This document shows positions 7,040 to 23,121 of a stretch of 36,091 nt of DNA, one piece after another (the first letter of the stretch is position 1; every line of letters begins with the position of its first letter). The notes beneath the pieces are model-generated. The model was not told where the DNA came from. It saw only the letters and a list, made by a program, of their open reading frames with translations, and searched no databases. Source of the DNA: Dehalococcoidia bacterium (GTDB lineage: Bacteria > Chloroflexota > Dehalococcoidia > DSTF01 > JACRBR01); NCBI GenBank assembly GCA_041494685.1, contig JBGQBE010000030.1, positions 1-36,091 on the forward strand, read 5' to 3'. The translations under genes were made by a program, and so were the position numbers.

Positions 7040-7402
7040 TCAAGGAGCGCCGTGCGGCGGCGCGCGCAACGGCCGGCTCACTCGGGCGCGCGCGAGGTTG
7101 TTCTCCTGCCAGTCCTCAAAGCGCATGACCACGACGCGCAACGGCTTCCGCCCGACGCGGGGCTGGCTCAGCACGACCACCGGCACCCTTCCGGTCTTCT
7201 CAGATGCCTCGATGCTCTGCTCCAACGCCCTGCGCACGCGGACGGGGATCGCCTTCATCGTCTTCACTTCCACGCCGTATTGACCGGTCTCCAAGTCGCT
7301 GCGACGGGCTCCGGCACTCGGGATCCGCGACGTGCCGAGCGCCTCGGCGATGCTCTGCTCCTGGCGCTTCCAGCGCCGATTGCCACCGTTACGGCTGCTC
7401 AC
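7040..7402 (-). CDS. Small PD-(D/E)XK nuclease / phage Holliday-junction-resolvase-like protein
   Basis: GTG 7402 after SD AGAGGAGG; 120 aa with WKRQEQSIAEALG..RIP..G..SDLET..YGVEVKT (E...D...ExK) followed by VPVVVL. Confidence 0.75.
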   Translation of the reverse strand: MSSRNGGNRRWKRQEQSIAEALGTSRIPSAGARRSDLETGQYGVEVKTMKAIPVRVRRALEQSIEASEKTGRVPVVVLSQPRVGRKPLRVVVMRFEDWQENNLARARVSRPLRAPPHGAP

Positions 7403-7579
7403 ACGACCTCCTCTGCTTTGACAGTCGCGGGTGAAACGAGGCTTCCGCGGTTCGCGCGATGTCAAGTCAACGGGCACCCTCCGCCGCGTCATCATGCCAC
7501 AATAGTCAACTGGAGGCCGTTGTTCTGCTCGCCTTGGTCACCGGGAGGCTGAGCGACTATCGAACAGGAGGAGAACACG

Positions 7580-7999
7580 ATGCGCAAGGTCATCGCAAGC
7601 GTCAGCGCCTTCATCGTCGGTGCGATCCTCGTGGCGGCGTCCGGCGCCGGCCATGCCCGCGCCGAAGGCGAATACACCTCGAGTTCCGTCGCGCTCACGA
7701 GAACGACCCTGGTGTGCGACGGCCGCCACCGGACGAAGGCCGTCGTCCGGACGTTCGCCGATCCCGGGCAGACGGTCCCGGTGCCGGACGTACCGGTGCT
7801 GGTCGGCTGGTACCTGCCAGATGGGACACCGGCGCAGGCGACCGGGGTGACGAGCAGGCGCGGCGTGTTCCGTGCCAGCTTCGAGCCAGACACCCACGGG
7901 ACGCCGGGGCAATTCATCGTTGTCTTCATCGTCGGTCACAGCATCAGCCACCTCTGGATCACCTGCGAAGCACCGCGGCGCGAACACACGCGATCGTAG
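7580..7999 (+). CDS. Secreted hypothetical protein, possibly Ig-like beta fold
   Basis: SD AGGAGGAG; MRK plus a hydrophobic stretch and ARA cleavage site; beta-rich mature part (GVTSRRGVFRASF). Confidence 0.7.
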   Translation: MRKVIASVSAFIVGAILVAASGAGHARAEGEYTSSSVALTRTTLVCDGRHRTKAVVRTFADPGQTVPVPDVPVLVGWYLPDGTPAQATGVTSRRGVFRASFEPDTHGTPGQFIVVFIVGHSISHLWITCEAPRREHTRS

Positions 8000-8114
8000 C
8001 GCCGGGGTCCCGCTCATCACGGCCCAGCCCATCCGGCGCGCGGCCACGAACGGCGGACGCCGCCGACACGCGCACCGTTCGCCCGCCTGCGCCGGTAGAC
8101 CGCGGCCGCGCGCA

Positions 8115-8181
8115 ACGGCCGCCCGGCACTGCCCGCCACGACGTTCGGCACTGGACGCGGCTCCGCGCCGCGGCGTACGGT
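8115..8181 (+). promoter_or_regulatory. Tandem DosR/OsdR-like boxes plus -10 element upstream of the molybdoenzyme operon
   Basis: ACGGCCGCCCGGCACT (8115-8130), CACGACGTTCGGCACT (8137-8152), 23 nt, then TACGGT (8176-8181). Confidence 0.5.
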
Positions 8182-8212
8182 CGCGCCAACCGAATCCGCG
8201 GAGGTTCCGACA

Positions 8213-11008
8213 ACGCCGAGCGAAGCCGACGACCGCCGTTCCGAAGAGCGCTACCGCGACGCCATCCGCTGGGAACGCGTCGCGTCGGTCACGCACTGCG
8301 TCGACTGCTATCCGGAGGCGTGCCCGTTCAAGGCGTACGTCGCCGGCGGCCGCGTGCTGCGCGAAGAGCAGTCCGGCGTGTTCGAGACGGTGGAGCCGGG
8401 CGTCCCGGACATGAACCCGGCCGGCTGCCAGAAGGGCGCCGGCTGGAGCCGCATGCTCGACGCGCCCGAGCGCGTGCTGTATCCCCTGGTGCGGGACGGC
8501 GAGCGTGGCAGCGGACGCTGGCGGCGGGTCTCCTGGGACGAGGCGCTCGCGCTCGTCGCGGACGGGATCCTGGACGCCCTCCAGGGACAGGGCTCGGACG
8601 CCATCGTCTTCGAGGGTACGCCCGCCCAGGGCGGGCTGCTGGCGTCACCGCTGATGGGCGCGCTCTTCTCGAGTCTCGGGGCGGTGCAGACCGACGTCAA
8701 CGCCAACATCAACGACTTTGGGCCGGGGCTCTACCTGACCTTCGGCAAGTTCAACGCGATGGCCAGCGCCGACGACTGGTTTCACTCCGAACTCGTCATC
8801 ATTACCTGCGCCAACCCGGTCTACACGTGGATCGCGCAGTACCACTTCATCGCGGAGGCCCGCTACAAGGGCGCGGAGGTGATCACGGTCGCGCCCGACT
8901 GCTCGCCCTCGACGGTGCACGCGGACGAATACGTGCCCGTGCGGCCCGGCTGCGACGCGGCGCTGGCGCTCTCGATCTGCCGCGTCGTGATCGATGAGAA
9001 GCTGTACAATCGTGACTTCGTCGCCCGGCAGACTGACCTGCCGCTGCTGCTGCGCGACGACACGCGCCGCTACCTGCGCGCGAGCGACATGGTGGCCGGC
9101 GGCAGCGACCTGCAGCTCTATTGGCTCGATGATGCGACAGGGCGCGTCGTCGAGGCGCCGCGGGCCACGCTCGACGCGGGCGCCGTGCGGCCCGCGCTCG
9201 AAGACGCGACGGAGGTCACGCTCGCCGACGGGTCGCGCGTGCGCGTGCGCCCGGTGTTCGAGACGATGCGCGAGCGGCTTGCGGAGTACGATCCGGAGTG
9301 CGCGCACGAACTGTGCGGCGTGCACCCCGACCAACTGCGCGCGCTGGCCCGCAAGATCGCCACGCGTCGCACGAACTTCCTGATGGGGCTGACGTCCGGC
9401 AAGTACTTCCACGGCGACCTGATCCAGCGCAGCTGGGCGCTGGTGGCGGCGCTCACCGGCAACTGGGGCCGCAAGGGTACGGGCTTCCACCAGTGGGCCG
9501 TCGGCGGATTCGACGGGGCGTTCCTGTTCGGGATGAAGCCGTCCGCCGGCCCGGAGGCGGCGCGCCAAGTGCTCGCCGGGCGGCGCGGCATGATCGACTT
9601 CCTCCGCGCGCAGGATCCGACACTCACCGATGAGCTCGCGGCCGTCGAACTGTCGATGCGTCTCGCCGAGGGCGGCGGATCGTCGCCAGCCGCGTTCTTC
9701 TGGCACCGGCAGGCCGGCTACGCGGAGCGCTGGCGGCGCTGGACGGACCCGTCGATGCCGCGGCCGCTCGACGAGTACGTGCGCGAGGCCGAGGATGCCG
9801 GCTGGTGGCCGGGCGCCCGCCCCGCCGCCGATGTGACGCCCGAAGTGTTCGTCGAGTGCGGCGGCAACATCCTGCGGCGTGCGCGCGGAGGCGGCGCGCT
9901 GCTGCTCAAGCACCTGTGGCCAAAGCTCAAGCTCGCCGTCACGGTCGACTGGCGCATGTCGACGACGGCGATGCACTCCGACGTGGTGCTGCCGGCGGCG
10001 CAGCACTACGAGAAGGCGTCGTTCCAGATGCCGATGCCGCGGGCGATGGGGATCACGTTCTCCGACCGGGCGGTGCCGCCCGCCGGAGAATCGAAGAGCG
10101 AGTACGAGATCATGCTCGCGCTGGCGAAGATGCTCGAAGCGCGCGCCGCCGCGCGCGGGTTCTCCGAGTTTGTCGACGCGAGCGGCCAGAAGCGGAGCAT
10201 CGACGGCCTGCACCACGTGCTGAGCAAGGGCGGCGCCATCCTCACGGCCGAGCAGGTGGCGGAGGAGATGATCAACGACACGGTCATCGCCGGCAACGTG
10301 CCGCCCGACACGACGATCGAGACGATGCGCGAGCGCGGCTTCGTGCGGTTCCTCGATTGGGGCATCTCGCCGTACGGGATCACGCAGGCGACGGACGTGC
10401 GCCCGGACGAGACGACGTCGCCGTTCCGCAACCACGTCGAACGGCTGCAACCGTACCCCACGCTGTCGCGTCGGGCGCAGTTCTACATCGAACATCCGTG
10501 GTTCCTGGAGGCCGGCGAGGAGCTGCCCTGTCACAAGCCGCCACCGAACCAGGGCGGCGCGTACCCGTTGACGCTGATCAGCGGCCACAACCGCTGGAGC
10601 AGCCACTCGACGAACCAGGTCAACCGGATGATCCTGAACACGCATCGCGGGCACCCGTTCCTCTTCATCAATCCGGGCGACGCGCTGGCCCGCGGCATCG
10701 CCGATGACAGCGAGGTGCGCGTGTTCAACGACGCGGGCCGCTTCGTCACGCACGCGCGCTTGGCGCCGAGTGTGCCGCCGGGCCTGGCGGTCATGTACAA
10801 CGGCTGGGAGCCGTACCAGTTCCCGCGATGGGAGGGCACGGCGAACGTTGAGCCGGGGCTGGTGAAGTGGCTGGGCTTCGCCGGCGGCTACGGACACCTG
10901 CGCTACTGGCAGTTCCAGTGGCAGCCCGTGCCGAACGACCGCGCCATCAGCGTGGACGCGGAGCCGGCGACCGGGCGGAACGCGGAGCGCGTGGAGGCAT
11001 CGCCATGA
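8213..11008 (+). CDS. Molybdopterin oxidoreductase alpha subunit, DMSO-reductase family type II (EbdA/S25dA/NarG-like), no Tat signal
   Basis: The frame is open upstream of the tool's 8354 start and contains EERYRDAIRWERV-THCVDCYPEACP...MNPAGCQKG (FS0 H-C-C-C cluster motif). Also DVNANINDF (candidate Asp Mo ligand), KYFHGDLIQRS, SDVVLPAAQHYEK and SGHNRWSSHS. Start placed at ACG 8213, 8 nt after GGAGG. Confidence 0.9.
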   Translation, partial: TPSEADDRRSEERYRDAIRWERVASVTHCVDCYPEACPFKAYVAGGRVLREEQSGVFETVEPGVPDMNPAGCQKGAGWSRMLDAPERVLYPLVRDGERGSGRWRRVSWDEALALVADGILDALQGQGSDAIVFEGTPAQGGLLASPLMGALFSSLGAVQTDVNANINDFGPGLYLTFGKFNAMASADDWFHSELVIITCANPVYTWIAQYHFIAEARYKGAEVITVAPDCSPSTVHADEYVPVRPGCDAALALSICRVVIDEKLYNRDFVARQTDLPLLLRDDTRRYLRASDMVAGGSDLQLYWLDDATGRVVEAPRATLDAGAVRPALEDATEVTLADGSRVRVRPVFETMRERLAEYDPECAHELCGVHPDQLRALARKIATRRTNFLMGLTSGKYFHGDLIQRSWALVAALTGNWGRKGTGFHQWAVGGFDGAFLFGMKPSAGPEAARQVLAGRRGMIDFLRAQDPTLTDELAAVELSMRLAEGGGSSPAAFFWHRQAGYAERWRRWTDPSMPRPLDEYVREAEDAGWWPGARPAADVTPEVFVECGGNILRRARGGGALLLKHLWPKLKLAVTVDWRMSTTAMHSDVVLPAAQHYEKASFQMPMPRAMGITFSDRAVPPAGESKSEYEIMLALAKMLEARAAARGFSEFVDASGQKRSIDGLHHVLSKGGAILTAEQVAEEMINDTVIAGNVPPDTTIETMRERGFVRFLDWGISPYGITQATDVRPDETTSPFRNHVERLQPYPTLSRRAQFYIEHPWFLEAGEELPCHKPPPNQGGAYPLTLISGHNRWSSHSTNQVNRMILNTHRGHPFLFINPGDALARGIADDSEVRVFNDAGRFVTHARLAPSVPPGLAVMYNGWEPYQFPRWEGTANVEPGLVKWLGFAGGYGHLRYWQFQWQPVPNDRAISVDAEPATGRNAERVEASP

Positions 11009-12009
11009 CGAACATCGGACCGGACAACCGGGCGGCAACGGCGCCGCCACTCAATGAGATGCTGGGCCTCTATCGGACCATGGTCCTGATCCGCGCGTTC
11101 GAGCAGCGCTTCGCGACACTCGTGCTGAAAGGCACGTTCAGCGGCGCCGGGCATCTGTGCGTCGGACAAGAGGCGGTCGCCGCCGGGGTCTGCGCGGCGC
11201 TGCGCAATGACGACTACGTGACGTCAAACCACCGTGGGCACGGCCACTGCCTTGCGAAAGGCGTCGATCCGGACGAGATGATGGCCGAGCTGTACGGGAA
11301 GGCGACCGGCACCTGCAAGGGCAAGGGCGGCTCGATGCACATCGCCGACTTCCGCCGCGGCATGCTCGGCGCGAACGGCATCGTCGGCGCCGGGCTGCCC
11401 ATCGCCTGCGGCGCCGCCCTGACGGCGAAGCTGACGAAGTCCGGCCGCGTCGCCGTCGCGTTCTTTGGCGACGGCGCGTCGAACATCGGCGCGTTCCACG
11501 AGTCGCTGAACCTCGCGTCGATCTGGAAGCTGCCTGTCGTCTTCGTGTGCGAGAACAACCGCTACGGCGAGGCGACGCCCGTCGAGTACGCGCTCGCCGC
11601 GGAGCACGTGGCCGATCGTGCGCCGGCGTATCGCATGCCCGGCGTCATCGCGGACGGGCAGGACGTCCTGGACGTATACGCGAAGGCGCGCGAGGCCGTT
11701 TCCCATGCTCGCGCGGGTGACGGTCCCGTGCTGCTGGAGTGCGAGACGTACCGGTACTTCGGGCACTTCGTCGGTGACCAGGCGCGCTACCGGTCGGCGG
11801 AAGAAGTGGAGTCGTTCCGCGCGCGCGACTGCATCATCCGCTGTGCCGAGCAGCTCACAAAGCAGCACGGCGTGCGGGCGAAGCAACTCGAAGACATCGC
11901 AGCGGACGCAGAGGGACGCCTCGACACGGCCGTGGCGTTCGCCGAGAGCAGCGCGATACCCGACGCGGCGGAGATCATGACCGACGTCTACAGCGAGGTG
12001 CGGCGATGA
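11005..12009 (+). CDS. acoA: ThDP-dependent dehydrogenase E1 alpha subunit (AcoA/PdhA-like)
   Basis: ATGA overlap with the molybdoenzyme stop and SD GGAGG; GQEAV, SNHRGHGH, GKGGSMH, GDGASN...ENN and TYRYFGHFVGD motifs. Confidence 0.88.
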   Translation: MTNIGPDNRAATAPPLNEMLGLYRTMVLIRAFEQRFATLVLKGTFSGAGHLCVGQEAVAAGVCAALRNDDYVTSNHRGHGHCLAKGVDPDEMMAELYGKATGTCKGKGGSMHIADFRRGMLGANGIVGAGLPIACGAALTAKLTKSGRVAVAFFGDGASNIGAFHESLNLASIWKLPVVFVCENNRYGEATPVEYALAAEHVADRAPAYRMPGVIADGQDVLDVYAKAREAVSHARAGDGPVLLECETYRYFGHFVGDQARYRSAEEVESFRARDCIIRCAEQLTKQHGVRAKQLEDIAADAEGRLDTAVAFAESSAIPDAAEIMTDVYSEVRR

Positions 12010-13022
12010 CCACCGAACGCGTGATCACGTTCCGGGAAGCGATCACGGAGGCGCTCCGGCTCGAGATGCGACGCGACGAACGCGTGATCCTCCTGGGCGA
12101 AGACGTCGCCGGCGGCGCGGGACGCCAGGCCGAGGGGCTGTCCGAGGCCTGGGGCGGCGCGTTCGCCGAGTACAAGGGGCTGTTCGCGGAGTTCGGCGAC
12201 AACCGGGTGCTCGACACGCCGATCTCGGAGATGGGCTACCTGGGCGCAGCGGTCGGCGCCGCGATCACCGGCCTCCGCCCCGTCGCGGAGCTGATGTTCG
12301 TCGACTTCATCGGCGTCTGCATGGACCAGTTGATGAACCAGGCGGCGTTCGCGCGCTACATGTCGGGCGGCCGCGTCAACGTGCCGCTCACGATGCTGAC
12401 GCACGTCGGCGCCGGCGTGGGCATGGCGGCGCAGCATTCGAAGATGCTCTACTCGTTCTTCGCGCACATCCCGGGGCTGAAGGTCGTGGCGCCATCGTCG
12501 GCGTACCACGCCAAGGGGCTGCTCACGGCGGCGATCAGGGACGACGACCCCGTCGTCTTCTGCGTGCACAAGCTCCTGCTCGGGCAGTCCGAGCACGTGC
12601 CGGAGGAGCCGTACGAGTTTCCCATCGGCAAGGCGCGGATCGCGCGGCCGGGCAGCGACGTGACGCTGATCGGCGCCGCGATGACGACATCCGTCTGCCT
12701 GCGTGCGGCGAAGGCGCTCGAGGCCGATGGCATCGACGCTGAGGTGGTGGACCTGCTCAGCATCTCGCCGCTGGACGAGGAGACGGTGCTGTCGTCAGTG
12801 CGCCGTACGGGCCGCGCCGTCGTTGTCGATGAAGGATTCCCGCGTTGCGGCCTGGCGGCAGACGTCGCGGCGCTCATCGCCGGGCACGCGTTCGACCACC
12901 TGGACGGCCCCGTGAAAATGGTCACGGCGCCGCACGCGCCGGTGCCCTTCAGCCGGCCGCTCGAACTCGCGTTCATGCCGGGCCCCGAGCGCGTGCGAGC
13001 GGCGACGCTGGAGCTGTTCTGA
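12006..13022 (+). CDS. acoB: E1 beta subunit (AcoB/PdhB-like)
   Basis: ATGA overlap; LGEDV, DTPISE, ELMFVDF, DQLMNQAA, AAQHS and PVPFS motifs. Confidence 0.88.
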   Translation: MTTERVITFREAITEALRLEMRRDERVILLGEDVAGGAGRQAEGLSEAWGGAFAEYKGLFAEFGDNRVLDTPISEMGYLGAAVGAAITGLRPVAELMFVDFIGVCMDQLMNQAAFARYMSGGRVNVPLTMLTHVGAGVGMAAQHSKMLYSFFAHIPGLKVVAPSSAYHAKGLLTAAIRDDDPVVFCVHKLLLGQSEHVPEEPYEFPIGKARIARPGSDVTLIGAAMTTSVCLRAAKALEADGIDAEVVDLLSISPLDEETVLSSVRRTGRAVVVDEGFPRCGLAADVAALIAGHAFDHLDGPVKMVTAPHAPVPFSRPLELAFMPGPERVRAATLELF

Positions 13023-13047
13023 CGGGCGCTCCCTCCCGGGGCGCCCG
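13023..13047 (+). terminator. GC-rich hairpin directly after the acoB-like stop (no U-tract)
   Basis: CGGGCGCTCC-CTCCC-GGGGCGCCCG, a 10-bp stem with one G-U pair. Confidence 0.4.
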
Positions 13048-13057
13048 CGCCTCCCCG

Positions 13058-13125
13058 GAGGGCGATCCAGCCGGCCCGAATCGGCCGTTCGGCCCTGACG
13101 AAGGGTCGAGCGCCGGGTGTAGCGT
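13058..13125 (+). promoter_or_regulatory. DosR/OsdR-like box(es) plus -10 element upstream of the phosphoribosyltransferase-prs pair
   Basis: TCGGCCGTTCGGCCCT (13081-13096), a weak partner at 13058-13073, 23 nt, then TAGCGT (13120-13125). Confidence 0.55.
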
Positions 13126-13166
13126 AAGAACAGCGACGACGGCGGGTGCGCGGCAGCGGGGAGCAA

Positions 13167-13889
13167 ATGACGACCGTGGACGAGGATCCGGGCATGATGC
13201 TTGGCCGGTTGTACCGTGACCGCACGCACGCGGGCGAGTGCCTGGCGGCGCGCCTCGATGCGTACCGCGATACCGGCGCGCTGGTGCTTGGCATCCCCCG
13301 CGGCGGTGTGCCGGTCGCGGCGGCGGTCGCCCGCATGCTCGACGCGGACCTCGATATCGTCGTGGCGCGGAAGCTGCGCTCGCCTGGCTTCCCCGAGTTG
13401 GCCATGGGCGCCGTCACGGCTAACGGAGGCCAGTTTCTCAACGAAGACATCATCCGCGAGCTTGCGGTATCGAGCGACTACTTGCAGGCGGAGATCGCGG
13501 AGCAGATGGCGGACGCCAGGCGGCGCGAGGAGCGATTCCGCCGTGGCCGTGCGGCACGTGATCTCATCGACCGCGTCGTCATCGTCGTGGACGACGGGCT
13601 CGCGACCGGTGCCACGATGCGCGCCGCGGTTCGCTCGGTCCGCAGCGGCCAGCCGGCGCGGCTCGTGGTCGCGGTGCCTGTCGGCTCGACGCAAGCCTGC
13701 GAGGCGCTGCGCCAGGAGGCGGACGAGTTGATCTGCCTGCGCACGCCGGAGGACTTCTGGGCGGTCGGCGCGTACTACGCGCACTTCGAGCCCGTGGAGG
13801 ACGGCGAGGTAGCGGACATCCTGCACGCGGCTCATCAGCGGACAACACCTGAGTCCGTCGGGCTGGACGAGCGACCGCTGCGCGGTTGA
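13167..13889 (+). CDS. Putative phosphoribosyltransferase (Rv0571c/Rv2030c N-terminal type)
   Basis: YRDRTHAG, LGIPRGGVPVA, RKL..PG.PELAMGA, VIVVDDGLATGATM (PRPP loop) and FWAVGAYY motifs. Start 13167 or 13194. Confidence 0.88.
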   Translation: MTTVDEDPGMMLGRLYRDRTHAGECLAARLDAYRDTGALVLGIPRGGVPVAAAVARMLDADLDIVVARKLRSPGFPELAMGAVTANGGQFLNEDIIRELAVSSDYLQAEIAEQMADARRREERFRRGRAARDLIDRVVIVVDDGLATGATMRAAVRSVRSGQPARLVVAVPVGSTQACEALRQEADELICLRTPEDFWAVGAYYAHFEPVEDGEVADILHAAHQRTTPESVGLDERPLRG

Positions 13890-18109: not shown

Positions 18110-18359
18110 GAATCGACTCCCTCCCGCTCTTCAGGACGCGCACGGCCCGTCGCCGGCCGCGCCGAGGATTGTCCTCCGATCAACGCAGCTTTTCGGACCG
18201 CCGTCAGGGGCCGAACGGCCTTTCTCGTCTTGCGCGGTGCACGGCGGCACCGGGGATCAGCCGCTCCCGCGGCGCGGGCTCGCCCGAATACGGGCCAGAA
18301 GGCCGTAGCGGGCACGCCGACGCCCCTGCCAAGATGCCGACGAGGATGGGCACGTATCG

Positions 18360-19490
18360 ATGACCGGCGACTCGATCCCTGCGAGCCCCGACCAGCTCAC
18401 GGACGCGTGGCTCACGTCCAGGCTCCGCGCAGACGGTGCTGTCGAGCGGGCGCGCGTCACACGGCACACCACCGAGCTGCTGGAACTCCAGGGCGCGGCC
18501 GCGGTCGTCGCGCGGATCGCGCTCGACTACGACCTCGCGGAGCCGGGGGCGCCCCCTTCGCTCGTGGCGAAGTTCGCCTCTCCGCACGAGCCGATCCGCG
18601 CGCTCATGCGGATGATGGGCGGCTACGCCCACGAGGTCGAGTTCTACCGTCACTTCGGAGACGACCCCGGGATCCCGACCCCCCACTGCTTCCACGCCGA
18701 CATCGATCCCGACTCCGGCGTCTTCGTGCTGCTGCTCGAGGACATGAGCGACTCCCGGACGTCGGACGCCCACATACCGTCGGTCGAGGACATCGAGGCG
18801 GCGGTGCGGTACCTCGCGCCCTTCCACGCGAAGTGGTGGAACCACCGCCGGCTCCGTGAACTGGACTTCCTGCACTATCCCGGCAGCCCCGCCCACGAGG
18901 CCTTCATGGCGCAGGCGCGGGGCGCGCTCGCGGCGGCGCTGCCTGCTGCGCGCGAGCGGTTCGGAAGCAGCCTGCCGCCGGCGCTCGTCACCGTGGCGGA
19001 GCAACTGCTGGCCAACTTCGACGCGCTCTGGGATCTACGGCAACAGGGCCTCCGCGACGGCGTCACGATCGTCCACGGCGACTTCCACCCCGGCCAGATC
19101 TTCTTCCCCTCGGACCGGGGCGGCCGGTTCGCCGTCTTCGACTGGCAGACCGTCAGCGCCGGCAGCGGTGGCGACGACCTGGCGCGCATCATCGCGACCG
19201 GGCTGACCGCCGAGCAGCAGGCGGCAGACGACGCGCGGCTGATCGCGCTCTACCACTCGATCCTGGTCGAGCACGGCGTCACGGATTACGACATCGAGCG
19301 GTGCCGGCTGGACTTCCGGGCCGGGCTGCTCACCACCGTCGTCATCAACATCATCGCCGGGGCGAGCATCGCTCCGGAGTTCATCGAGGAGTACGCGGGG
19401 CCCGCCGAGATCGACATGGTCGAGGCGATGTTCGGGCGCCTCGCCGCCGCTGTCGAATCCCACGATGTGCTGGGCGTCGTCCCAACCTGA
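18360..19490 (+). CDS. APH/choline-kinase superfamily phosphotransferase (ecdysteroid-kinase-like)
   Basis: SLVAKF, EVEFYR, LLLED, FHAKWW, TIVHGDFHPGQIFF and FDWQ motifs. Confidence 0.88.
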   Translation: MTGDSIPASPDQLTDAWLTSRLRADGAVERARVTRHTTELLELQGAAAVVARIALDYDLAEPGAPPSLVAKFASPHEPIRALMRMMGGYAHEVEFYRHFGDDPGIPTPHCFHADIDPDSGVFVLLLEDMSDSRTSDAHIPSVEDIEAAVRYLAPFHAKWWNHRRLRELDFLHYPGSPAHEAFMAQARGALAAALPAARERFGSSLPPALVTVAEQLLANFDALWDLRQQGLRDGVTIVHGDFHPGQIFFPSDRGGRFAVFDWQTVSAGSGGDDLARIIATGLTAEQQAADDARLIALYHSILVEHGVTDYDIERCRLDFRAGLLTTVVINIIAGASIAPEFIEEYAGPAEIDMVEAMFGRLAAAVESHDVLGVVPT

Positions 19491-19520
19491 ACGTTCCCCC
19501 GGATCGGGCCATGCGGCACC

Positions 19521-19826
19521 TTGCCGCGCGTGCCCCTCGCGCCGCAGCATGTCGAAGCGATGAAGGCATCCGCCGCGACGCTCCTGGCGCTGCGAGAGTT
19601 CGCCGACCCCTCCTGCAGACGCTGCCGGGGCCGCGGCGCCACGGGCGACGACCTCGTCGCGACCCTCTGCGGTTGCGTCCGACGCCGTGTCCACGACGAC
19701 GAGCAGGCTGCGAGCGGCGATCCCGTTGATGACGCGCTCCCGCATCCCTGGGGCGTGATTACGCGCCGTGCCCAGCAGATCCACGCCGCACTGCTGCTCC
19801 AGGCTCTCCCCGACACTTGGAGTTGA
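19521..19826 (+). CDS. Small hypothetical protein with a CxxCxGxG...CxC motif
   Basis: GC-rich third codon positions; ADPSCRRCRGRG-x9-CGCV; fills the gap between two plus-strand genes. Start uncertain. Confidence 0.55.
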   Translation: MPRVPLAPQHVEAMKASAATLLALREFADPSCRRCRGRGATGDDLVATLCGCVRRRVHDDEQAASGDPVDDALPHPWGVITRRAQQIHAALLLQALPDTWS

Positions 19827-19911
19827 TCCGTCTCCGCCCGTGATACAGTGGCCCGAATTGCACGATGGCCCGACGTCCGTCGGCACGATGATCGAAAGCA
19901 GGTCGGCGAGG

Positions 19912-20583
19912 ATGGAGCAGGATCAGGCAGCCGGATTCTTCCGCGTGCTCTACACGACGCGCGCCCTGCGCCGCCTCAAGCCCGATCCCGTGCCCGAGGA
20001 GTTGCTGTTCCAGCTGATCGACGCCGCGATCCGCGCGCCGTCCGGCCAGAACGCCCAGGACTGGCGCTTCGTCGTCGTCACGGACCCGGCGATCAAGCTG
20101 CTGATGCAGACGGCCGCGACGGAGGCATGGGCGCGATACCAGCCGCGCTTCGCCGAGGATCCGGCGTCCATGGACGAGTTGCCGCGGACGAAGCGGCTGT
20201 CCCTCAAAGCGACGGCGCACCTCGCGCACCACGTCCGCGACGCACCCGCCGTGATCGTCGTCTGCGGTCTCAAGGCGCGGCACTCATCGCCGGGCGGCAG
20301 CGCGTTCCCGTCCGTCCAGAACCTGCTGCTGGCGGCGCGCGCCCTCGGCCTCGGCGCGTCGATCTTCCAGCTGGCGCTGTCGCCGGCGGTCGTGCGCGAG
20401 ATCGGCGTCCCCGACGAGTACCAAGTGCACTGCGCGATACCAGTCGGCTACCCCGTGGACCGTCACGGCCCCGTGCGGCGGCGCCCCGTCCGGCAGGTGA
20501 CGTTCAAGGACCGCTGGGGCGCCGCCTGGGAGTTCGCCGACGCGCAGCCGGACGACGGCCGGCAGGATCGGTGGCTGCGGTAA
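19912..20583 (+). CDS. Nitroreductase-family protein
   Basis: TTRALRRLKPDPVP, AAIRAPSGQNAQDWRFVVV, QNLLLAARALGLG and IPVGYP motifs; extended -10 TGA-TACAGT at 19841-19849. Start 19912 or 19888. Confidence 0.9.
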   Translation: MEQDQAAGFFRVLYTTRALRRLKPDPVPEELLFQLIDAAIRAPSGQNAQDWRFVVVTDPAIKLLMQTAATEAWARYQPRFAEDPASMDELPRTKRLSLKATAHLAHHVRDAPAVIVVCGLKARHSSPGGSAFPSVQNLLLAARALGLGASIFQLALSPAVVREIGVPDEYQVHCAIPVGYPVDRHGPVRRRPVRQVTFKDRWGAAWEFADAQPDDGRQDRWLR

Positions 20584-20715
20584 CGGTGGCGGGTGGGGCG
20601 AGAACACCGGCCCCGTGAGAGCCGCCCTCGCTAAGAGGCCGCGGCGGGCGGCGCTGGCGACAACGCGAGCCGCGAGCGTGACCAGCCGGTCAGGCTGCGG
20701 CCTGGCGGAGATCCC

Positions 20716-21540
20716 TCAAACGGGGATCGCGCGCCCGGTTCTGAGGCGGTAGCCAAGCATCGCCAACACGGCGACGATCGTCCAGGCGACCACGACACGG
20801 GTCGCCAGTCTGTTGACGTCGGATGTCCCGATCGTCGTTGGGTCGCTGGTCAGGGCCAGGCTGCAGATAGCAAACACGACGACGGTTGAGGCAGCGACCA
20901 GATCGACGAACACATGGCGACGAAACGGTTCCATCGACCGCGTGGCTCGTCCAGCAAGCCAGCGAAACGAAACGGCGGCGAGGGCGAAGACGACCAGCAT
21001 GGACGCATACCCGACAGGCGTCCCGTGCGGGATCTTTCCGCTCACCTGGAACAAACCAATGACGATGACGTTTGTCCCCAGCGCGAGAAGCCAGCCCCTC
21101 CGGTGCATGGGAGGCGACTGCGAATTGCGCGGCCGGATGCGATTGGCAAGGTAGAACGTCAGCACCGACTGGATTCCTCCCCACCAGAACAGGATGACGA
21201 ACAGCGAATGGCTCCAGCGAATGCCCAGGAGCGTCGGGTGCTGGAAGGCGGTGCCAGATACGAGGCACTGGTAGACCATGCCATAGGTGAAGGCCAGCGC
21301 GACGAGATGGTAATCCTTGAGTCTGAATCGCCTGATCAGATCCTCTTCCATCGCGAAGAGGCTTGCGTATGCTGCGATCAGGAAGACGGGGAAGACCGGC
21401 CGTTCGACAAAATGGTTGACCCCGCGCATCGAATACTCGAACAACAGGTTGAAGGCGGTCGCCACGATCACGATGTCGCGACTGGTGTGCCGTGCGCCCG
21501 CGTAATTCTTCGCGTGGACTGGCGATCGAGCGAAGCTCAA
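20716..21540 (-). CDS. Multi-pass membrane protein of unknown function
   Basis: TTG 21540 lies 7 nt after AAGGAGG; -10 TAGAAT at 21593-21588; about 7-8 hydrophobic segments. Confidence 0.72.
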   Translation of the reverse strand: MSFARSPVHAKNYAGARHTSRDIVIVATAFNLLFEYSMRGVNHFVERPVFPVFLIAAYASLFAMEEDLIRRFRLKDYHLVALAFTYGMVYQCLVSGTAFQHPTLLGIRWSHSLFVILFWWGGIQSVLTFYLANRIRPRNSQSPPMHRRGWLLALGTNVIVIGLFQVSGKIPHGTPVGYASMLVVFALAAVSFRWLAGRATRSMEPFRRHVFVDLVAASTVVVFAICSLALTSDPTTIGTSDVNRLATRVVVAWTIVAVLAMLGYRLRTGRAIPV

Positions 21541-21756
21541 GCCCGAACCTCCTTCGGCGGCGCGGCGGACTACGTTCACCCTTCGCCATTCTACTCGCCA
21601 TACCGTCGCGCCGAGGCGTCCAGAATCCTCGTCCGACAGCCGCTCGACCGGCCTTCCTTCGACGAACTCGAAGGGCTGCAAGGTCGAAGCGTGAGAATTC
21701 ACGCCGTACCGGATTACCACGATCATTACCGCGCCCGACGGGGTACAATCGCGAAT

Positions 21757-23121
21757 ATGCAGGCAACGCTGCCCTTTGGCGAGTCAACGGTTGATGTCGA
21801 GCTTCCGGCACGGACGCGGATGATCTCGCGGAGCGGCGGCGCCGGGGCGGGCGGCGGACTGCAAGCGGTGAACGATCTCGAGGCCGCGGTGCGCGACGCG
21901 CTCGATCGTCCGCTCGGGCTGCCGCCGATCCGCAACATGGTGAAGCCGGGCGCGCGCGTCGTGATCGCCTTCGACGACCCGACCGTGACGTCGTTCGGTC
22001 CGATCCGGCGCGTGGCGATCGAGGGCGTGCTCTCGCACCTGGCGGACGCCGGCGTGCGCGAGGACGACGTGCGACTGATCTGCGCGAACGCGCTGCACCG
22101 CAAGTTCACGCGCGCCGAACTGGCGACGATCATCGGCCAGGAGCTCGTCGACCGCTTCGGCGAGCGGCTCTTCTGCCACGACGCGGAGGACGCCGAAAAC
22201 CTCGTGTACTTCGGCACGACGGAGCACGGCTACGACGTCGAGCTGAGCCGGCACGCCGCCGACGCGGATCTGTGCGTCTACATCAACGCCGGACTGCACC
22301 TGGGGTTCAGCGGCGGCTGGAAGTCGGTGGCCGTCGGGCTCTCGACGTGGCGGTCGATCCGGCACACGCACCATCCGGACGGCATGTCGATGTCCGTGCT
22401 CAACAACCGCATGCACGAAGTGCTGAACGAGATGGGCGCGCACCTCGAAGCGTCAATGGGCAGGCGCATCTACAAGATCGAATGCGTGCAGGCGAGCCCG
22501 ACGAAGATCGCGCAGGTGTGGGCCGGCGGCGTCGGCGAAACGCGCGCGGCGGCTCTCGAGGTCATGGCGTCGCGCAACCCGCCACGGCGCTCGCAGGCGG
22601 AGCCGGCGGACGTCGTCGTCTACGGCCTGCCGGCGTGGAGCCCGTACGCGATCTTCGGCACGATGAATCCGATCCTGACGCTGATCTCGTCGGGCCTCGG
22701 CTATCTCGGCGGCTACATCGAGGCGCTGGGGAAGCCCGGATGCTCCGTCGTCCTGGCGACGCCCTGCCCGGAGACCTGGGACATGGAGCATCACCCGTCG
22801 TACCGCGAGGCGTGGGATCGCGTGCTGCCGGTGACGCGCGACCCGTACGAGATCATGAGCCGATTCGGCGATGAGTTTGCGACCAACGCCGCGTACATCG
22901 AGCGCTATCGGAACGGCGTGGCGTTCCACCCGGTGCACGCCGTGCTGGCGACGCATCCGTTGCGGCGGCTGAGGCACGCGTCGCGTGTGATCGTCGCGGG
23001 CGCGGAGGACGCCGCAATACCGCGCCATGTCGGATTCGAGTACGCGGCTTCCGTCGAGGATGCGATCCGTGACGCCGGGCGCGCGCATGGCAGCGAGTGC
23101 TCGGTCGTGTGCGTGAACTGA
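21757..23121 (+). CDS. LarA (lactate racemase / DUF2088) family protein
   Basis: Start trimmed to ATG 21757 (TACAAT 7 nt upstream); ALDRPLG, VIAFDDPT, ANALHRK, CHDAED and GFSGGWKS motifs. Confidence 0.82.
   Translation: MQATLPFGESTVDVELPARTRMISRSGGAGAGGGLQAVNDLEAAVRDALDRPLGLPPIRNMVKPGARVVIAFDDPTVTSFGPIRRVAIEGVLSHLADAGVREDDVRLICANALHRKFTRAELATIIGQELVDRFGERLFCHDAEDAENLVYFGTTEHGYDVELSRHAADADLCVYINAGLHLGFSGGWKSVAVGLSTWRSIRHTHHPDGMSMSVLNNRMHEVLNEMGAHLEASMGRRIYKIECVQASPTKIAQVWAGGVGETRAAALEVMASRNPPRRSQAEPADVVVYGLPAWSPYAIFGTMNPILTLISSGLGYLGGYIEALGKPGCSVVLATPCPETWDMEHHPSYREAWDRVLPVTRDPYEIMSRFGDEFATNAAYIERYRNGVAFHPVHAVLATHPLRRLRHASRVIVAGAEDAAIPRHVGFEYAASVEDAIRDAGRAHGSECSVVCVN

Follow-up and report, generated by a model that had tools for sequence, protein, structure and literature searches.

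What does a catalytic subunit of the ethylbenzene dehydrogenase (EbDH) type do in one operon with a thiamine diphosphate (ThDP)-dependent E1 pair of the pyruvate dehydrogenase (PDH)/acetoin type, when the partners of neither are encoded beside it? The question is raised by positions 8213 to 13022 of the window, by which we mean the whole 36,091-nucleotide stretch analysed here (contig JBGQBE010000030.1 of the Dehalococcoidia bacterium assembly GCA_041494685.1). The window is contig C30 of this 3.29-Mb genome assembly (G000; 87 contigs, ~69% G+C, 97.6% complete). The original prediction, made from the sequence alone, saw here a possible cytoplasmic, O2-independent module that would hydroxylate a substrate and then cleave it, with partner subunits supplied in trans. 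We find that these positions form a genuine operon of three translationally coupled genes, in which the gene for a leaderless EbdA-like α subunit is followed by those for E1α and E1β. The link between α and E1 is the new element here and constitutes a lineage-restricted operon; it is real, kept across substantial synonymous divergence and specific to this α orthogroup, yet it is evolutionarily unstable, and at least one lineage can dispense with it.

Operon architecture

Window proteins were identified by Pfam and NCBIfam scans, and their solved relatives by scores against Protein Data Bank (PDB) chains. The operon and its signals comprise the following features, with α residue numbers counted from the codon at 8213.

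8200..8204, + strand: GGAGG Shine-Dalgarno-like site, 8 nt before ACG 8213; the same GGAGG-N8-ACG occurs in metagenome locus L066
8213..11008, + strand: EbdA/S25dA-type Mo-bisPGD (molybdenum bis-pyranopterin guanine dinucleotide) α subunit, leaderless, 931 codons plus stop; PF00384 and PF01568; first codon ACG
8294..8428, + strand: ligand motif of the FS0 [4Fe-4S] cluster (His28, Cys32, Cys37, Cys72), from the translation and the alignment to EbdA
8714..8716, + strand: Asp168 codon, in a gap-free alignment row with EbdA Asp223
11005..12009, + strand: ThDP E1α of the PDH/acetoin type, 334 amino acids; PF00676; own GGAGG at 10993-10997
12006..13022, + strand: E1β, 338 amino acids; PF02779 and PF02780; stop codon at 13020-13022
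13020..13049, + strand: G+C-rich hairpin with a 10-bp stem and a 5-nt loop, no T-run; from folding

The three genes are joined by ATGA overlaps, as originally predicted, and both junctions can be read directly in the sequence. At the first (11005-11008), the α stop codon TGA (11006-11008) overlaps the E1α start codon ATG (11005-11007), and at the second (12006-12009), the E1α stop codon TGA (12007-12009) overlaps the E1β ATG (12006-12008). Contigs from two other sediment samples (runs X2 and X4) span the two gene junctions without a single difference, which rules out an assembly chimera as the origin of the arrangement. Pfam scans of the 32 open reading frames of the window detected no Fe-S β subunit, EB_dh γ subunit, NarJ-type chaperone, E2 or E3, in agreement with the original prediction. 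The hairpin proposed to follow the operon does have its 10-bp stem, but at −30.3 kcal/mol it is no more stable than shuffled sequences (z = −0.35; 67 of 200 shuffles were as good) and it lacks a T-run. Scans of positions 7300-13300 for terminator and promoter consensus sequences returned 0 and 0 sites, counts that have little meaning at 70% G+C.

The α subunit is of the EbdA type

The α subunit contains the Molybdopterin (PF00384, 1.7e-30) and Molydop_binding (PF01568, 9.8e-18) domains. It scores 830.8 bits against TIGR03479 (type II dimethyl sulfoxide reductase α), under the cut-off of 984.75, and 728.3 bits against NF042978 (EbdA equivalog), far under the cut-off of 2000. Its best solved relative is 2ivf_A, the α subunit of EbDH (695 bits, E = 1e-207), compared with 427 bits for a chain of 4ydd, which we take to be perchlorate reductase, 177 for NarG and 132 for NxrA. 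These PDB scores, used in place of a tree with S25dA, CmdA, SerA and AhyA, place α with EbdA and not in a respiratory reductase clade. The alignment between α and EbdA is collinear over residues 11-916, and both of the features named in the original prediction align in it: the FS0 motif (H28-x3-C32-x4-C37...C72) and the candidate Asp ligand, Asp168, at the position of EbdA Asp223, presumably a Mo ligand.

The position assigned to the α start, 8213, agrees with the nearest homologues, but the codon there is ACG in the window, a point overlooked earlier. The α frame is open from 8099 to 11008, after a stop codon at 8096-8098, and the first ATG, GTG or TTG within it is the GTG at 8354; of the four FS0 ligands only Cys72 lies after it, the other three being encoded upstream. 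ATG occupies exactly the aligned codon in the closest homologue (P0002, 91% identical, 931 amino acids) and in locus L055, while five further orthologues have a start ATG or GTG within a few codons. In L066, which is 93% identical over 361 codons, a GTG lies five codons upstream of the ACG, and the same codon is GTT in the window. On such grounds one could argue that α has lost its start codon and is silent or nearly so in this strain, with only E1α and E1β, which have their own GGAGG, being expressed. We regard this as very unlikely. The frame is open over 931 codons with a G+C content at third codon positions of 0.92, GGAGG-N8-ACG is common to the window and L066 (around L066 640-690), and the two α genes have a dN/dS of 0.15 since their split, with 56 synonymous and 28 non-synonymous differences over the 361 codons. 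Moreover, a contig from another sample (run X2) matches positions 8061-8317 exactly.

An assembly error as the source of the ACG is ruled out by its presence in L066 and by the identical run X2 contig. The CTG that forms codon 11 of the open frame was likewise rejected as the start, as L066 has an in-frame stop codon downstream of the CTG position. The ACG is real and predates the split of the window and L066 lineages, and α was under purifying selection afterwards. Because the ACG is common to both lineages and dN/dS is 0.15, α is translated now or was until very recently, either from the ACG or, ancestrally, from a nearby GTG. Translation in the window probably starts at ACG 8213, and α may be a naturally ACG-initiated bacterial gene, although very recent silencing in this strain is possible. 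With purifying selection acting on it despite its odd start, α does not clearly qualify as a pseudogene. Apart from the operon itself, a conserved ACG under purifying selection is a minor example of what may be non-canonical initiation in a bacterium of high G+C content.

Leaderless α subunits and partners encoded elsewhere

No twin-arginine leader is present upstream of FS0 in the window α. The original prediction was correct in this respect, but the missing leader is a clade-wide trait of Chloroflexota and not a peculiarity of this α. Nine places in the genome encode EbdA-family α subunits, five on contig C16, three on C15 and one in the window, and a twin-arginine translocation (Tat) leader was found at one of the nine only (C16:32205-35120); the other eight lack it from any candidate start. 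Among the 120 homologues listed (53-91% identity), 119 have the FS0 motif, preceded by a median of 35 residues, and a motif test found an RR motif with a hydrophobic stretch after it in 0 of the 120. EbdA-family genes are present in 11 of the 40 other genomes searched, with 6 to 20 matches each. The lack of an export leader points to a cytoplasmic α.

The eight further α genes lie in two clusters (G000:C16:14959-35120 and C15:14167-30184) together with γ, β, δ and MobB-FmdE genes. Between them, C15 and C16 hold two EB_dh γ genes, four Fer4_11 places (3-4 β-like genes), three of which adjoin α genes, one Nitrate_red_del (NarJ-type δ) chaperone and one MobB-FmdE protein. The γ and β proteins of the genome are also without signal peptides. 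One γ protein (G000:C16:30267-30902; L077:1348-1983) aligns to EbdC over its whole length and has Leu in place of Met108 and Arg in place of Lys201, two residues that we take to be the heme b ligands of EbdC. Judging from these two positions, the cytoplasmic complexes may lack heme b. The supply of partners in trans, which the original prediction had proposed, is thus supported by the β, γ and δ genes on C15 and C16 and by three E2 genes and one E3 gene that accompany other E1 pairs. The lack of a leader and of adjoining partners is normal for the clade, and genes located elsewhere in the genome account for it. The two clusters also hold a NosZ-like gene and multihaem cytochrome c genes.

Compared with EbdABC(D) of Aromatoleum aromaticum (PDB 2ivf), the window α is alike in domain order, in the His/Cys motif of FS0 and in the Asp position, and the genome encodes an EbdB-like β, an EB_dh γ and a NarJ-type δ. 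The differences are that the window α has no Tat leader and the genome's γ no signal peptide, that no β, γ or δ gene lies beside the window α, that EbdA His192 is replaced by Pro and the presumed EbdC heme ligands by Leu and Arg, and that the EbdA score is 728 bits against a cut-off of 2000.

A parallel in gene content is the steroid C25 dehydrogenase (S25DH1-4) system of Sterolibacterium denitrificans. In the sections of the report available to us, that organism has eight α paralogues, with fewer β/γ sets and one chaperone, which serve several α subunits (PMC6016249), and the genome studied here similarly has nine α subunits and fewer β, γ and chaperone sets. The window also contains genes of a steroid- or lipid-type side-chain kind (DUF35/ChsH2-like OB fold, thiolase-like, acyl-CoA dehydrogenase and enoyl-CoA hydratase). 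Unlike the leaderless α subunits described here, those of S25DH have a Tat sequence and a proposed periplasmic location, and the same sections mention no E1 gene beside S25DH (PMC6016249). Several putative ahyA (anaerobic alkane hydroxylase) genes of the EbdA family have been described per metagenome-assembled genome (MAG) of Chloroflexota, which resembles the multiple EbdA-family genes per genome seen here; the available part of that report does not mention that leaders are missing, that subunits are shared or that E1 is linked (PMC13170169).

The literature searched, with subscription journals and supplements outside its scope, contained no description of leaderless EbdA-like enzymes of Chloroflexota or of the E1 link. 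To our knowledge, no enzymes but those of the EbDH/S25DH type hydroxylate unactivated alkyl carbons by means of water, and every one that has been studied is exported. The existence of a large clade without leaders in widespread sediment Chloroflexota implies that C–H bonds are activated anaerobically in the cytoplasm.

The E1 pair resembles PDH E1

E1α contains the E1_dh domain (PF00676) and the GDG...NN ThDP motif, and its best PDB match is 1ni4_A (6.5e-63). E1β consists of Transket_pyr (PF02779) and Transketolase_C (PF02780), scores 335.9 bits against NF006667, over the cut-off of 321, and has 3duf_B (3.5e-75) as its best PDB match; the best solved relatives of both subunits are PDH E1. A His in E1α (YRYFGH) aligns with human E1α His263, and one in E1β (AAQHS) aligns with Geobacillus β His128, which are presumably the histidines of reductive lipoyl acylation. 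That these histidines are kept in the window pair points to an E2-dependent enzyme. The Pfam domains, the GDG...NN motif and both histidines are therefore common to the window pair and to E1 enzymes of the PDH/acetoin type (human 1ni4; Geobacillus 1w85/3duf; AcoAB). The window pair differs from these in the score of E1α against TIGR03182 (360 bits, under the cut-off of 394), in a 12-residue insertion near the N-terminus of E1β and in having no adjoining E2 or E3. The genome contains four E1 pairs, three of which are followed by E2, and one of those also by E3 (C3); the window pair alone has neither.

The description of the pair as AcoAB-like in the original prediction is borne out by the PDH/acetoin-type domains and the ThDP motif, but the models matched in NCBIfam are those of PDH E1 and the automatic names of E1α homologues are mixed, including both pyruvate dehydrogenase E1 and acetoin:DCPIP oxidoreductase subunit α. 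In the chemistry proposed on the basis of this description, α would hydroxylate the carbon beside a ketone to yield an α-hydroxyketone and the AcoAB-like E1 would cleave its C–C bond with ThDP. This putative scheme can draw on the acetoin names, on the operon coupling of α and E1 and on enzymes of the acetolactate synthase (ALS) type, also ThDP-dependent, beside α orthologues in L051, L068 and G035. We nonetheless consider it quite unlikely, since the PDH names and models count against it, the AcoAB partners AcoC and AcoL are absent from the window, and the retained lipoyl-acylation histidines point to an E2-dependent enzyme. In addition, EbDH-type hydroxylation passes through a carbocation, which is destabilised by an adjacent carbonyl, and this mechanism disfavours attack on a carbon beside a carbonyl.

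The ALS-type enzymes form a second class of ThDP enzymes that recurs near the α orthogroup, next to α orthologues at three loci. Their coordinates are L051:1963-4041, L068:2961-4700, L029:12131-13999 and G000:C16:4871-6607.

A proposed role for the operon

As a leading but still tentative explanation, we propose that the operon encodes two substrate-specific modules, with their generic cores elsewhere, that take part in one catabolic route at different steps. In the first module, the leaderless cytoplasmic Mo-bisPGD/FS0 α would dock onto β, γ and δ subunits from C15 and C16, and would use water to hydroxylate a C–H bond in a substrate that is lipid-like, an isoprenoid or a hydrocarbon. In the second, the E2-less α2β2 ThDP E1 would most likely pass an acyl group to a lipoyl-E2 core, of which three are encoded outside the window. 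The route would end in the nearby acyl-CoA genes, which encode acyl-CoA dehydrogenase, enoyl-CoA hydratase, thiolase and CoA ligase. We infer that the modules belong to one pathway, the kind of substrate on which they act and the shared use of E2 and of β/γ subunits. The docking of α onto subunits encoded elsewhere would follow the same logic as the eight α paralogues of S. denitrificans, as far as the available sections describe them (PMC6016249).

A bolder version of this proposal treats the operon as a portable “specificity cassette”, in which a cytoplasmic Mo hydroxylase, translated from a selected ACG, and an E2-less E1 would plug into shared β/γ and E2/E3 cores. Such a cassette would constitute an undescribed O2-independent route in sediment Chloroflexota that activates and then cleaves a lipid, isoprenoid or hydrocarbon skeleton. 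Taken as a whole, this version is unlikely.

The function of an α subunit of this kind can be approached in few ways, and a recurrent operon partner offers one of them. If E1 acts downstream of α, the search for substrates narrows to compounds that are degraded via a 2-oxo acid or an acyloin.

Conservation of the α–E1 link

Fourteen α orthologue loci were found (75-93% identity, compared with at most 57% for paralogues), of which 11 have enough downstream sequence to judge the E1 link; L052, L066 and L069 end within the α gene and were excluded. The original prediction had called for a survey of linkage among close homologues, and that survey gave a mixed result. The link recurs in L055 and L051, so that close homologues do sometimes lie next to the same E1 genes, but together with the window these are only 3 of the 11 loci, and the E1 pair has been deleted in L068. 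The three linked copies have 4-nt overlaps at both junctions. L055 is ~90%, 89% and 93% identical to the window in α, E1α and E1β, respectively, with the overlaps ATGA and ATGA; the corresponding values for L051 are 85%, 83% and 88%, with GTGA and ATGA. Between linked copies, dS is 0.44-0.61 and dN/dS is 0.13-0.21 across all three genes (0.15-0.21 for α, the comparison with L066 included), and all three genes are under purifying selection.

In a quick tree of α orthologues with support from the Shimodaira–Hasegawa-like approximate likelihood ratio test (SH-aLRT), the window groups with L066, L055 and P0002 (SH-aLRT 100). The linked copies do not form one clade, and linked L051 is the sister of unlinked L068 (SH-aLRT 100). 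The flanks of L068 are collinear with those of L051, and a 57-nt remnant of the E1β 3′ end (L068:7765-7821) lies ~20 nt after its α stop codon, with identities of 88%, 80% and 76% to L051, L055 and the window, respectively. The remnant and the collinear flanks indicate that the E1 pair was deleted in L068, and the link is thus ancestral in at least one branch (L051/L068). No E1 remnants were found downstream of the seven other unlinked α genes. P0002 (contig of 4745 nt) has a 21-residue C-terminal tail resembling that of the linked copies. In the tree of E1, the relations of L051, the window with L055, and G002 with G019 are unresolved. One fusion in the ancestor of the subclade, followed by repeated separation, is the simplest reading of these patterns, though the link may have been gained twice.

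Several observations weigh against a shared pathway for α and E1. The link is absent from 8 of the 11 loci (G002, G019, G028, G035, G024, L065, L067 and L068), and almost every locus has different neighbours around its α orthologue: an acyltransferase together with a convergent methylmalonyl-CoA-mutase-like gene in G002 and G019, an ABC-F ATPase in G028, a β subunit, a second α and an upstream ALS-type ThDP enzyme in G035, and a flavoprotein in G024. The deletion in L068 was clean (~1.9 kb), yet the α frame was kept intact. Orthologues of the E1 pair follow an acyl-CoA dehydrogenase in G002 and G019, on a contig other than that of α, and an enoyl-CoA hydratase in G008, and they face two acyl-CoA dehydrogenases in G028. 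The first module has its own difficulties. EbdA His192 aligns with Pro in α, and the chemistry may therefore differ from that of EbDH; α, which has no canonical start codon, may not be expressed in this strain.

The eight unlinked loci, the loss in L068, the acyl-CoA dehydrogenase and enoyl-CoA hydratase genes beside E1 orthologues and the varied neighbourhoods would all be expected if rearrangement in a highly fluid region had placed a free-standing E1 pair behind α. The genes would then be co-transcribed while serving unrelated routes, with E1 belonging to acyl-CoA or branched-chain metabolism. We view this as a realistic possibility that ranks second among the explanations considered. It accounts less readily for the 4-nt overlaps kept at both junctions in three copies at a dS of 0.44-0.61, and for the absence of such an E1 neighbour from every other α paralogue. 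It also sits uneasily with the distribution of E1β orthologues (at least 79% identity), which occur in 6 of the 12 genomes with EbdA-family genes, G000 included, and in 0 of the 29 without them; the latter count includes G021, which has neither gene family, and is 0 of 28 when G021 is left out. The α and E1 orthogroups occur together in five of the seven genomes that have either, G024 having α only and G008 E1 only. These co-occurrence counts overstate the case, as the genomes are related, and are suggestive only.

The specificity of the link was also assessed beyond the orthogroup. A comparison of the E1_dh places of ten relatives with ~140 α-family places revealed no other same-strand α-to-E1 adjacency; it did reveal one divergent α/E1 pair (G019:C14) and one E1 set ~2 kb from an α gene (G024:C1). 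A class-wide search of 401 genomes added three more E1α homologues (58-61% identity), with short flanks that contain neither α nor E2.

Two further features of α orthologue loci were noted. A methylmalonyl-CoA-mutase-like gene is convergent to the α orthologue at three unlinked loci (L027:6071-8116, L031:9297-11057 and L067:8406-10109). The α orthologues of two MAGs from one assembly project (L055:7879-10668 and L057:6001-8788) contain 3 and 4 frame breaks, respectively, which may be long-read indel errors rather than signs of decay.

Genes surrounding the operon

According to Pfam, the genes upstream of the operon, on the opposite strand, encode acyl-CoA dehydrogenases, an enoyl-CoA hydratase, an AMP-forming ligase, a thiolase-like protein and two DUF35/ChsH2-type OB-fold proteins, and a phosphoribosyltransferase and a phosphoribosyl pyrophosphate synthetase are encoded downstream in the window. 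Also downstream, at 18309-23118 on the + strand, are genes for an EcKL/APH-type kinase, a nitroreductase-family protein and a LarA-N-domain protein. Upstream of α, positions 7580-7999 encode a 139-amino-acid protein with a signal-peptide-like N-terminal stretch and no Pfam or NCBIfam match, and a 79%-identical copy of this protein is also encoded upstream of α in L066.

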